Positions 4,328-12,849 of a stretch of DNA of 64,000 nt are shown in pieces (position 1 is the stretch's first letter; the number at the start of each line of letters is the position of its first letter). Origin of the DNA: Chrysemys picta bellii. Lineage: Eukaryota. A program made the translations under genes and the position numbers. Location: NCBI RefSeq assembly GCF_011386835.1, contig NC_088803.1:5456001-5520000 (forward strand), written 5' to 3'. The notes under the pieces were generated by a model, which was not told the origin of the DNA, ran no database searches, and saw only the letters and a program-made list of their open reading frames with translations.

Positions 4328-4336
4328 CAACTGATT

Positions 4337-7300
4337 TAAATTTTATTAGAGAATATTTAAAAAAATAAACGATACATTACATTTGAAGCGTTAGTTATTG
4401 GTCACTGGGGGTAACATACAGAGTATAGGGGTATGTTGGTGTTTTGGGGCTGGGCAGCACACATAGTATATACACATTGCAATGTCCCCAATGAGGGGTG
4501 GGTAACCAGTGGGCGGGATCAGGAGACAGTCGATAAGCAGTGAGGGTCTAACACCCATACGGGAGGTAGAGACAGTCATGGGTATAAGTAAGCGGGCTGG
4601 GTAATGGGGATGGGGTGACCCTCACGTGGCGGGATTCAGCTAGGTTTGGTGGGTTTAGGGCTCAGGGGATAGGGTCCAGCAGGGGGTGTGTGTGGGTGCA
4701 CGAGGTCTCCCCGGCTCACTCCCGGTATTGGCGGTGGCCGGTGATGTGCTCGATGTAGATGTCCCGGGACCAACGGATAGTGTCCGAGACCATTAGGCGT
4801 CTCATGAGCCGTGCGTAATGATGGCCCACCCCACAGGTCCTCAGCACGCGTTCGTTACACGGGTCCCAGGCACCCAGGGCCCCAACGAGCAGAGAGTCGA
4901 CGTGCACCTCGTAGCCCTTGGTCCGCAGGGTGTCAGCCAGGGGGGCGTACTTTTCGAGCTTGCGGGCTCGGGCTTCGCGGAAAGCCGGGGTCCTGTTCTC
5001 GAACAGAATCGCTACGTCGACCAGGATGATCTTTTTCCCCACCTCGTCCGTGACGACAATGTCTGGGCGCAGTGGGCTGTCGGTGCCGGGGACGGTGCGG
5101 TTGACAGTGATCTCTCCCAGACGCGGGTTGATGGCCTTCACTAGACGGTCCTGGACGGCGTTGTGGCGTAGCTGCCAGGCTCTGGCATGGGGCTTGCAGC
5201 AGCATAGGACGTGGGGCAGGGTTTCGTTGACGTACCCGCACTTCCTGCAGCGTTTGTCCCGGTTCCCGTGGCGGATGGCACCGTTGAGCGGGACGCAATT
5301 CAGCCGGGCGCGGTGAATGAACCGCCAGTCGGCGAACCGGGTGAAGCTGCCTGTGGGGAGGAAGTGGTTGCTGGAGTCCCACTTGCTGGTTACTTCGAAG
5401 ACTTTACCCCTGGTCCGGCTTTTTCTTCAGGGCGTCCACGTAGAGCGCGTGGACGGCGGCCTTCAGGGATCACTCCAGCACGCCTCTGGCTCCGGGGGTG
5501 ACGACGATGTTGTCCTCCGTTCCGATCCGCGGTATCAGGACTCCCAGCTCCTGCCGTTCCTCGTTCCATTCCCAGCGGCAGCCCAGGCGCTTTCCCAGCC
5601 CGCGCGTGGCATTGCGGGCGCGGGTCCAGAGCGAGGCGAAATCACCCCTGTCCCGGGCGAAGTCGCCATCCAGGGAGCCACTCAAGAAGGTGGCCACATC
5701 TCGGTCGGAGGGAGGTCTGCCGATTCGTTTCTCGGTGGCGGCGTGCAGGGCGGTCGTTGCAACGTTCTTCACCGTGGCGTCCGGGCAAGTCAGGATGCGG
5801 AAGGCGTGTGTGAGGACCGCGATGTCACAGAGGTCTCCCATACGGGGGACGCCGGCACCACCGTGCCTGTGCTTGATGTATACGAGTTCGTTGCTGGCTC
5901 TCCGGGGCAGGGACATCCAGTTTTTGACCAGCTTCCGGATGGCGTTGTCCACCTTGTTGAGGGGCACCTTTGCCACGGCGGATCCCCTCAGGACGAAGGC
6001 GATGCGGGGGATCAGGAAGGTGTTGAGGGCGTTGATCTTCTGCCACGGCGCCAGCAGGGATGTGTCGATTTTGGCGGCGTCCTGCAGGATCTCCCTGATG
6101 GTGTCCTCGGGGGTCTGCCGGACGCGGAAGCCTGTCGGCGTGCCGAGGTGCTGGTACGCCTTCCCCTCCGCCAGGGGAACCACGGACTCGCCCTGGATGA
6201 GGAACTCCGTCATCAGTACCGAGTCCCTCTTGCTCCCGTCAACGTGGAGGGACGCACACTTCTTGGCATTGAAGCGGAGTCCCGTCCAGTCCGCGGCTCT
6301 CCCGATGGTGTCGAGCATGCCCTGGAGCCTCTCGGGGTCGTCCGCGATCAGGACCAGGTCATCCGCGTAGGCCAAGACGCTCACCCTCTCGCCGTGCAGG
6401 TCGAAGCCGTCGACGCCGTCGGAGATCGCCCGCAGGAGCGGCTCCATGGCGAGGTTAAAGACGATGGGGCTGAGGGGGCAACCCTGCTTCACGCCGCTGT
6501 GGATCGGTATCTCTGCGGTCTCCCCTTCTACCGATTGGATGGTGGTGCTGCAGCCCTCATATAGCTCCTGGATCAGGTGGAGAAAGGTCTCTGGCATCCC
6601 AAACTCCTGTAGGGTGTCGAAGATGTGATGGTGGGGGATGGACCCGAAGGCGTTGGCCAGGTCGAGCCACGCTATCGAGCACTGCCTCCGCGTTCTCCTG
6701 GTCGTCTGGATGACGGTCTGGAGAAGGAAGTTGTGCTCGTAGCACCCCTCCGACGGCATGAAGCCCTTCTGGGCAGGGCTGATGGCTCCCCCGGTCGTCG
6801 CCCATTCCGTGATTCTGGCTGCCAGGCAGCTGGCGTACAGTTTGTACATGGTGGAGCAGAGGGAGATGGGTCTCCAGTTGCTGGGGTCATCCCGCTCGCC
6901 CTTCTTGGGAATCAAGACGGTCATGGCCTTCTTCCAGGAGGTGGGGGATCGGCCGAATCGCTTGCACAAGTTAAAGATGTTGGAGAGCAGGAGGCAGCCG
7001 GGGTCCCGCTTCTTGAGGAGGCTGTAGGGGATGCTGTCTTTTCCGGGTGCAGTGTTCTTGGTTCTGGAGAGCCTGGCCGTCACCTCTTTAGGGGTGAAGT
7101 CGGCCTCCAGGCTATCCACGTCGGGAATGCGGGGCAGGGGGCGGACGCACTCCGGGCGCTGCGCGTCGTTCCTGGGCATGCCGCCGAACACTCCGAGGAA
7201 GTAGTTGTAGAGGCGCTCGGGCGGGATCGTGCAGTACGACGGGGGCCCGTCGAGGATCTCTGTTACGGCCTTGAGGCGGTTCGTCCGGTACAGCTTCTGG

Positions 7301-10806: not shown

Positions 10807-10940
10807 TACCAGCTGAAGAGTTATAAAATACCATGGTTATTGTGTCATGACAAAGTCTGTGTTCAGTGTTCTGTGTTGCATGTTCTGTGTCTGTCTCTAG
10901 TGGTGTCCTGTGCTAGGATTGGGTCCAGAAAAAGAGGGGA
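10807..10940 (+). repeat. 134-bp direct repeat, copy 2 (flanks the Utopia 5' end)
   Basis: Same 134-mer as 4194-4327. Confidence 0.95.
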
Positions 10941-11670
10941 TACTACACTAGACAGGGCAAATGTCTTTTCCTCTCTCTACTCTCCCCATCTCCATCCAAC
11001 TTATCAATCACCCCTTGTGTCCAAAAAACTTTGGTTCCCAGTGCATCAGGTTTATTTGTTGTTAGGTTCTCTAATAGTCATTTTGTTGTTAATTTTTGTT
11101 ATTAATACATTTGTATTGTTAGTTACATTTGCTTGTATTATTATTAATTCCACACTTTCCTCTATGCACTCTGGTTCTATTTCCCCAAGCCCTGAAGGGT
11201 AGTTCTTGGGCCCCCATAACCTGTAAGACTTGGCCCATAATTGTATGGCCCCATCTTTCAGGTCCCCAGAAACCTCTGAGAACAACTGTTAAAAATAGGG
11301 AATTCTACAATATTTTAGCAACTAAATGTTAGTTTAAGTCCAAATCAGCTTAACCTTGCATAACAACTGTGGTACTCCTACAAAATCTTACTTGTTGTGT
11401 GTGCTTAAAAAGGTCCTGACCTCAGTGACTTTTATTGTTTGATGGCTATTGCAGCATCAAACTTGGGCCTCATTTTGTTTGTCAATGTACCCAATTATTG
11501 TAATGGTAATGGTTTTGTTGTATTTCCAATTATTATAATTATAATTGTTTGCATTTGTGTTTATGTTATATCTGGTGTTTAGTCAATTCTAATAGTTTTA
11601 GTTATATTCACCTGGTTATAATTGTTTGGTTTGTTTGCAACAAATACAAAAGATTTATATGGTGACCACT
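10941..11670 (+). pseudogene. Degenerate env-like / hydrophobic remnant preceding the PPT
   Basis: Hydrophobic stretches (YLLLGSLIVILLLIFVINTFVLLVTFACII; GIIVWFVCNKYKRF) at the env position, with many stops. Confidence 0.3.
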
Positions 11671-11692: not shown

Positions 11693-11702
11693 AAAAGGGG
11701 GA
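11693..11702 (+). other. Polypurine tract
   Basis: AAAAGGGGGA followed by CAA and then the 3' LTR TG. Confidence 0.8.
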
Positions 11703-11705
11703 CAA

Positions 11706-12542
11706 TGTAGATAAATCTCTGATAATTTTCATATGACTTTACATTGTGCCTCTTCATATAACCTTGTGGTGGGTCTACCCACGTGTGACCTCTGTTTTCA
11801 TGGGACTTTGTATCAAAGCCTCATTTAGAAACTTTGCATTGCCCTTGGTATATTATAGCCCCTAAGGATAGAATAAGATAGAAGAAAATTTTCTTTTTGC
11901 TAGCAGTAGAACAAGAGCTCTCCCCCCCACTCTTAATCAATTGCCCTGTTGAATGAATGAGGTGTGGATGAGCAAGGCATGGAAGGCAGCACCTCCAGAC
12001 AGCCTCAACTGTTGGAGAGGGGCTGGGAGCCAGACCCAAGGACAATAAAACGTGTCAAGTGGGCTCATTAAAGACAAGCAGACATACTGACGGCCTCGGG
12101 GGTTAGAAGCAAGCACCTTCTTTTGGAAACACCCTCTTTGCAGCATTGGGACAACACTCAAAAGAAAGCAGCACAAAGGACCAATGGACACAGACACAGA
12201 GTTTGAATCTGGTCTAGATTTGCATAAGAGGGAAGCTGCTATAAAAGTGAGGTGTCTTGCAGAGGACCCCGGGTCTCGTCTTGTCAACATGGGAGCATCG
12301 ATCCGGATCGGCAAAAGCCCGGCTCCACCCCCTCCCCCATCTAACTCACCTGGCCAGTGAAGTTAAGGGGAGCAACTAATTGGTAACAACAAGACGGAGT
12401 GTGTTTGTGTGTGTGTGTGAGTGTAAGTGTAATATATTATATGCATATGATACAGTGTTAATGAATACATGTATTACTAATAAATGTGGCGTTTTGTCTT
12501 ATTCCCCCTGAAAAGATCCTGTGCACTACTTTAAGTACAACA
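11706..12542 (+). repeat. 3' LTR (837 bp)
   Basis: Direct repeat of 2115-2961, followed by the TSD CTAT. Confidence 0.95.
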
Positions 12543-12849
12543 CTATTTACCCCTCTCCACCCTGAACCCCGCTTTGGGCCTGGCTTCTCCCCAGCCACTG
12601 ACCCAGGAGAGTCCTGCCCCTGCCCCCGCTCACTGGGCTAGGAGCCCTTGGGGAGGGAGCCTCGCCAGGGTCACTGCCCCTCCGCACACGGATCCATGGG
12701 GCAGAATTCCCCTCCCGCAGCCCCTGGGGCCCAGCTCGGCGGCCGATCCCGCAGCGCTTTGCTGGAGTTCAACCCAGGCCTGGCCCTGCCAGGATGCCCC
12801 TCTGCACAAACAGGCACCACAGGGGAGAGTGGGCTAGAGCAATGGGGGC

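Follow-up and report, generated by a model that had tools for sequence, protein, structure and literature searches.

A Utopia retrotransposon at a U2-like site of a turtle LTR retroelement family, and its likely origin from a spliced transcript

The Utopia insertion and its junctions

The window analysed here (G000:C13:5456001-5520000; 64,000 nt from Chrysemys picta bellii) carries a Utopia-2_CPB-like retrotransposon, which lies inside a long terminal repeat (LTR) retroelement at a short site resembling the gene for the U2 small nuclear RNA (snRNA). The LTR element is non-coding and on the plus strand, and the Utopia insert is antisense to it. The 5' LTR (2115..2961, plus strand, TGTA...AACA) is 97.8% identical to the 3' LTR (11706..12542, plus strand), and the pair is bracketed by copies of a 4-nt duplication, CTAT, at 2111-2114 and 12543-12546. 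A primer-binding-site-like sequence, TGGTGGAGAATGCG, can be read just after the 5' LTR (2965..2978, plus strand), and a polypurine tract (11693..11705, plus strand) stands ahead of the 3' LTR. With two LTRs with TG...CA ends, the short duplication, the primer-site-like sequence and the polypurine tract, the host is a non-autonomous LTR retroelement resembling an endogenous retrovirus (ERV); six of its open frames gave no Pfam match. The primer-binding-site-like sequence is putatively of the tRNA-Ala type, and from the 4-nt duplication we guess that the element is an ERV of class 1.

The insert (4335..10741, minus strand) runs from the position of a leader AG acceptor to a terminal AATAAAATTTAAA, with its reading frame in three pieces; frames of ~2,000-2,290 codons are present in five of seven other full-length copies. 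The reverse transcriptase domain (6244..6912, minus strand; RVT_1, E=1.1e-38) is the only Pfam match in the two pieces of the insert that were scanned. Two N-terminal zinc-finger-like motifs (CPIC...HLKRCH and CALC...HQASC; 8383..8550, minus strand) were read by eye from the translation, as were a CCHC knuckle (CRKC...HVLC) and a restriction-like nuclease motif (RPD...VDV..FE) in the C-terminal piece (4716..5426, minus strand), for which the Pfam scan returned no match. The 3' end, ...CTCTAATAAAATTTAAA at 4335, is common to the copies compared, a few of which have a variant last base; Utopia copies terminate in AATAAAATTTAAA, and this terminus matches the one given for Utopia-2_CPB in PMC4640811 (S1 Fig), in keeping with a turtle host. 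Among 102 distinct 3' flanks of Utopia copies in the genome, 11 are U2 from TCTGTTCTTATCAG and 4 others begin 20 nt deeper in U2. By terminus, U2 flanks and domain order, the insert is assigned to Utopia, of the NeSL clade. Keno, a Tx1-clade element with the same U2 site, has an apurinic-like endonuclease; the window insert gave no such Pfam match in the two pieces scanned, and instead shows the restriction-like motif at its C-terminus.

The insert is bracketed by a direct repeat of 134 nt (132/134 identical), with the 5'-side copy at 10807..10940 and the 3'-side copy at 4194..4327 on the minus strand. For comparison, 30 of the best 40 of 304 candidate LTR-family loci were fetched, 29 of them besides the window. 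The 27 uninterrupted loci among these read GTGTAGTA|TYYC... and contain the 134-nt stretch once; the repeat is therefore a target-site duplication. The sequence AGTGTAGTA, which sits 134 nt upstream of the 5' junction of the element, marks the left edge of this duplication and hence the 3'-junction position, where the element end joins the target at AGTGTAGTA^TCCCCTC. The natural site, TCTAGTGTAGTA^TCCCCTCTT (10932..10952, minus strand; insertion point between 10941 and 10940), is identical at 17 of 21 positions to a U2 locus of the same genome, TCAAGTGTAGTA^TCTGTTCTT. The published Utopia 3' junction lies before U2 nt 39, TCTGTTC (PMC4640811), and the alignment places the insertion point in register with it, at U2 nt 38/39.

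Two pieces between the duplications are foreign. At the 3' end, 7 nt (TCAGTTG, 4328..4334, minus strand), which belong neither to the target nor to the Utopia consensus and are likely a 3' transduction, separate the element from the duplication; at the 5' end there is a 65-nt exon-like piece that is not Utopia (10742..10806, minus strand). A preliminary description of this DNA had noted U2-like motifs on both sides of the insert, AGTGTAGTATC at 10949-10939 and ATCAGTT at 4335-4329 of the minus strand, and had placed the insertion inside an LTR element rather than a U2 gene. Both motifs are present, and the location is borne out, since an Rfam scan of the window gave a single match, to a tRNA, and none to U2. 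The upstream motif is beyond chance as a target, given its 17/21 identity to U2 in register and six Utopia insertions at its base (below); the downstream one does not belong to the target. The first A of ATCAGTT, which had been taken to follow the 3' end of the element, is the last base of the element itself, the foreign 7 nt being 4334-4328. As a target half ATCAGTT is missing from all 27 uninterrupted copies, none of which has TCAGTT between -20 and +40 of the site, and none holds AGTGTAGTATCAGTTG, the empty site that had been proposed. A version in which the LTR element originally contained AGTGTAGTATCAGTTG, so that U2-like halves flanked the inserted element, would fit the presence of both motifs and the match of TCAGTT to U2 nt 49-54. 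It is contradicted by the uniform GTGTAGTA|TYYC of the 27 copies, by the 134 nt between AGTGTAGTA and the 5' end of the element, and by the existence of a matching source of TCAGTTG in repeat units on C20 (below), and we consider it extremely improbable.

The LTR family and other repeats as targets

A search pattern with AT-rich sequence before the downstream half-site returned eight rows, from seven interrupted loci of the LTR family. Six of the seven hold Utopia at one base: the window, L153 (148 nt), L155 (735 nt), L156 (1151 nt), L157 (322-327 nt) and L065 (4.1 kb). The window's subfamily accounts for three of them, and the other three come from a subfamily with a different 3' untranslated region. 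Their 5' truncation points differ, and their junctions show no change or a one-base change, 13-nt deletions, clipped 3' ends or the 134-nt duplication. Under uniform insertion, 5.5e-6 insertions would be expected at this base. The half-site pattern has 203 matches in the genome (the window's duplicated stretch should count twice), so that about 3% of some 200 sites are filled. Exact Utopia termini number 129 in the genome, 3 of them at the LTR-family site; the other three copies there have variant or clipped ends. Among 114 distinct flanks that follow an intact Utopia end, four lie in the LTR family, all at the same base. The proposal that a multicopy LTR family bearing a short U2 mimic is an alternative target of Utopia is upheld by these counts.

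The six copies might instead descend from two ancestral insertions, one for each subfamily, which multiplied along with the LTR element or through gene conversion and lost sequence afterwards by trimming. The host family is young and has many copies (with identities of 95-99% in the best 40 of 304 candidates), L153 and L157 have an identical 13-nt target deletion, and L065 and L153 have an identical clipped 3' end. The shared features, however, cross the subfamilies, the 5' truncations, 3' junctions and duplications are different in every copy, and L153 and L157 cluster with uninterrupted copies. A tree of 46 host stretches, although weakly resolved, requires seven changes for the seven interrupted copies, and none of 200 bootstrap trees gives one origin. 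We therefore hold such shared descent to be very unlikely.

The seventh interrupted locus, L154 (G000:C2:94.91 Mb, 8486-8700), has a tRNA-derived, CR1-tailed short interspersed element (SINE; its name is our assumption) and 30 extra nt exactly at the Utopia site; Utopia may have mobilised this SINE, or the SINE may have been caught at a Utopia nick. In L066 (G000:C8:71.52 Mb, after 1973), the family copy stops 4 nt past the site and is joined to a 17-nt LTR terminus in inverted orientation, beyond which the DNA is unrelated; this may reflect repair of a break at the site. The reverse nesting is seen in L254 (G000:C2:268.6 Mb), where an LTR of the same host family lies inside a full-length Utopia; the LTR family and Utopia were therefore active in overlapping periods.

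The U2-like motif is frequent in this family. The sequence AGTGTAGTATCNNNTCTT occurs 128 times in the genome, compared with 6 for the reversed control, and the first 30 loci comprise 19 of the LTR family, 7 U2 genes or fragments and 4 others. As an addition to the explanation by Utopia targeting, the motif could have been kept as the complement of the branch-site-binding region of U2 on the element's own RNA, the Utopia hits being a by-product of a splicing-related signal. On this side, with G-U allowed, pairing is possible at 19 of 21 positions; positions -12 to -1 show 3 departures across 43 uninterrupted copies, which puts them in the lowest 5% of windows of 12 columns; past the motif the sense strand has a pyrimidine tract and runs for ~85 nt with no AG; and the chance of a 17/21 match in one such element is ~1e-3. 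On the other, a bulged-A yUnAy is absent within the motif when read by eye, and no splice-type joint near the site appears among the rows shown from four runs (two raw RNA runs and two contig sets, all on an uninterrupted LTR-family copy; 180 loose-end rows fall outside those shown). Given how many repeat families a genome has, one match of this kind is to be expected, and it is Utopia that brings it to notice. No RNA carrying the LTR-element motif was among those listed. We regard the splicing signal as unlikely; a fortuitous resemblance picked out by Utopia itself accounts for the motif with at least equal probability.

Outside U2 and the LTR family (4 of the 102 flanks), a second repeat received 6 insertions and 77 flanks were of other kinds. 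In 76 of the latter (one internal duplicate removed), the U2 base was found at +1 to +6 in T91% C74% T71% G66% T51% T54%. Upstream likeness to GTGTAGTA exceeded two controls (p=3e-4 and 0.01, n=59 once flanks containing N, ends that were unmapped and clearly wrong boundaries had been excluded). TCAGTTG occurs in 1 of 110 junction records. The minimal recognition sequence that the preliminary description expected from the locus is not defined by one site: the 76 flanks show a graded preference. Such a preference agrees with the relaxed specificity described for reptile Utopia families, for which PMC4640811 gives weakly specific, U2-like junction words such as TGTAGTATCTG and TCTGTTCTT.

The target site of the second repeat can be written GAGGTAATA^TCTTTTATT, GAGGTAATA^TCTTTTATTGGA or GAGGTAATA^TCTTTTATTGG and has 4,799 exact occurrences, so that its six insertions in the sample (L135, L145, L164, L193, L196 and L198) correspond to an occupancy about twenty-fold lower than that of the LTR family. 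We presume this very abundant repeat to be Penelope-like. Insertion pairs with a common 3' flank occur in three further repeats (L075 and L244; L074 and L209; L083 and L207), and are either more recurrent targets or segmental duplicates. Three 3' ends (L183, L204, L206) are joined 20 nt further into U2 (TCTGATA...), the reported top-strand cut position. In addition, ten 5'-truncated copies (L139, L143, L163, L174, L182, L204, L206, L209, L221, L224) have a U2-like piece, extending to ~nt 38, at the truncation point. These pieces reflect either insertion into U2 pseudogenes or jumps to the RNA's own leader, and in the second case they would seed new U2-like sites.

Source of the foreign end-pieces

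The 65-nt piece with which the insert begins (10806-10742) matches seven repeat units on C20, C25 and C28, with one difference in 65 nt from the units L221-L224, and in all seven units GTAAGT follows directly. A U2-like site lies ~130-150 nt into the intron of these exon-bearing units. It is empty in L227 (GGTAGTA^TCAGCTG) and filled by a truncated Utopia followed by TCAGTTG in L223 and L224; in L250 and L251, TCTGTTCTTA and TCAGTTG stand after Utopia. The joined sequence AATAAAATTTAAATCAGTTG has only three occurrences in the genome, the window and two C20/C28 units. These matches trace both foreign end-pieces to one C20/C25/C28 repeat unit, itself a recurrent target of Utopia. Once one unit accounted for both, the interpretations of TCAGTTG as a slip within the U2 tail and as a copy of the TCAGCTG at the end of the duplication were dropped; that it is Utopia consensus was rejected on its single occurrence among the 110 junction records and the three exact AATAAAATTTAAATCAGTTG matches. 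About 5 kb downstream of the exon, on the same strand, lies a CD22-like immunoglobulin (Ig) exon (PF24518, 26.9 bits, just below the cut-off of 27).

Nine of ten distinct full-length 5' ends have a U2-derived leader and then ...TACTGATACACTGTATCAG|CTATCCTGAAG, reading TACTGATAC.CTGTATCAG| where the tenth, the window copy, has the exon piece. In the window, exon CCAGG is joined directly to CTATCC, that is, donor to acceptor, with the intervening DNA missing. The last G of the exon is retained, which a switch through the shared CAG would lose. Uninterrupted Utopia copies have a frame that stays open from the acceptor on, with the first ATG ~35 nt past the acceptor. All eight full-length copies (L075, L077, L083, L243, L244, L253, L255, L256) have a variant U2 5' leader, from ~nt 1 or 20 to 58; such leaders, present also outside U2 genes, imply that transcription would begin from a U2-type start. 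An Rfam e-value scan of a full-length 5' end gave a weak U2 match only and no ribozyme family; leader folding gave z=-0.75, and no structured-RNA claim is therefore made.

Given the exact joint of GTAAGT donor to AG acceptor, the window copy is likely a spliced retrocopy, made from a host-exon/Utopia transcript of an intronic copy. The donor would have been a full-length Utopia at GGTAGTA^TCAGYTG, ~130-150 nt into the intron after the 65-nt exon and upstream of a CD22-like Ig gene. A host transcript may have been spliced from the exon's GTAAGT donor to a TACTGAT...TATCAG acceptor in the Utopia leader, which would remove the U2-derived leader, and may have read through into TCAGTTGCCCC. At the LTR element, the putative Utopia nuclease likely nicks TCTAGTGTAGTA^TCCCCTCTT at the same base as in U2. 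The bottom-strand nick would fall at AGTA^TCCC and the second-strand break 134 nt downstream; priming could have started in the read-through tail TCAGTTGCCCC, aided by the CCCC common to tail and target, and the 5' end could have been joined through GTA microhomology.

The same target use is compatible with a different source of the end-pieces, in which reverse transcription passed from host pre-mRNA to Utopia RNA and back by template switches. The donor was not found in the assembly, U2-like pieces at the 5' junctions of 8 of 92 shorter records make template switching visible in the Utopia family, and such switches are described for snRNA chimeras (PMC4494074). Two jumps would, however, have to land exactly on the GTAAGT donor, the AG acceptor and the known Utopia/TCAGTTG junction, in the right order and within one unit, and we judge this quite unlikely.

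For the preferred reading as a whole, namely that Utopia uses the U2-like site of the LTR family at the U2-equivalent base and that the window copy arose from a spliced transcript with a 134-nt duplication, we estimate a probability of about 0.78. Several observations weigh against it. None of the seven exon-bearing units found holds a full-length Utopia. The Utopia pieces in the units are 88-92% identical to the window copy, compared with 96-97% for its nearest relatives, so that the donor is missing from the assembly, and the spliced structure was seen once. Fitted to the other flanks, a position-weight model predicts 0.0005-0.07 insertions in the 203 LTR-family sites, where six are found, and this site matches U2 at only 4 of 7 positions from +1 to +7. 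In the poorly resolved host tree, starred branches force only two changes, and another full-length Utopia (L243) occupies a different site of the same LTR family. As the model also underpredicts the second repeat (0.04-0.19), the modelled sequence preference leaves part of the excess unexplained; better upstream recognition, pairing between the RNA end and the target, or chromatin may add to targeting.

Neither L223 nor L224 was the direct donor, being only 92% identical; L223 alone has one terminal variant in common with the window copy. The L243 insertion (G000:C20:8.19-8.20 Mb) lies at a U2-like site, GTAGAA^TTCCCTA, ~360 nt from the main site. It has a duplication of ~120 nt, and its 3' end is clipped where 7 nt match the target; ends clipped at shared letters also occur in L065 and L153, and all three may point to pairing of the RNA end with the target.

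Target duplications and relation to known elements

Long duplications are not confined to the window. They measure 59, 113, 121, ~120-126 and 134 nt in five of the eight full-length copies with a non-U2 3' flank. In the 92 shorter records whose 5' junction was mapped, some of them with uncertain boundaries, only three duplications, of 12, 53 and 90 nt, were found besides two tandem units in a U2 array. A 20-nt duplication is typical of reptile Utopia in U2 and is seen in the U2-array copies L158 and L256, unlike the 134 nt of the window copy. In crocodilians, off-target duplications are described as rarely recognisable in PMC4640811, whereas in the turtle they are present in these five full-length copies. 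The long duplications bear on second-strand cutting by retrotransposons with restriction-like nucleases, a step relevant to RNA-templated gene insertion.

Host exons spliced onto retroelements and then retrotransposed are known from SVA_F1/MAST2, and insertion of a non-LTR element into another transposon from Tx1L, which targets Tx1D; both use L1-type or apurinic-like endonuclease machinery. SVA_F1 gave rise to a subfamily; of spliced Utopia, a single copy was found here. The 5' extensions of SINEU-2 (PMC4494074) are likewise foreign 5' sequence traced to a master copy inserted in another multicopy sequence, in that case multicopy genes or a Mariner; SINEU-2, however, is a SINE for which a template switch or recombination is invoked, and the window copy is an autonomous element with a restriction-like endonuclease joined at exact splice signals.

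Closest to the present case are Utopia-2_CPB and the other reptile families of PMC4640811 (Kojima and Jurka 2015), with the same 3' terminus, insertion before U2 nt 39 and the 20-nt duplication seen in the U2-array copies L158 and L256; U2-like off-target junctions in reptiles are already known from that work. The parts of it consulted do not report one base of another repeat family being used repeatedly, and describe no splicing or transduction (the word 'transduction' has no match in the main text), and the LTR-family words TCCCCTCT and GAGGAAAAGAC have no match in its S1 Fig. The YURE families in U2_sat (same source) are likewise Utopia relatives in a U2-like multicopy repeat rather than a U2 gene; U2_sat derives from U2, whereas the likeness of the LTR-family site to U2 extends over no more than 21 nt. 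Among the papers listed in a literature search, none dealt with hotspots of Utopia in other repeats or with spliced Utopia; 59-134-nt Utopia duplications, and capture of an exon by way of an acceptor in the leader, were found neither in that search nor in the parts of PMC4640811 consulted.

How an element that targets a low-copy gene such as U2 persists is raised as an open question in PMC4640811. The young LTR family offers ~200 near-match sites, ~3% of them filled, compared with 8 exact intact U2 5' halves in the assembly, where collapsed arrays may hide more. These sites form a natural substrate series for mapping what the Utopia nuclease reads. On the evidence of the spliced copy, transcription and mobilisation of an off-target insertion likely took place with no U2 promoter; the copy likely shows a route of spread outside the usual target. 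We speculate that turtle-type Utopia could have a second life cycle outside U2, in which look-alike sites in multicopy repeats and gene-family introns would serve as recurrent targets, the leader acceptor would provide a capped mRNA from a host promoter with the U2 leader spliced off, and off-target copies would become sources; this extension is tentative, and we think it somewhat doubtful.

Elsewhere in the window, the tRNA gene is at 1076-1148, ~1 kb from the LTR element, and GC-rich tandem repeats fill much of the remaining sequence.

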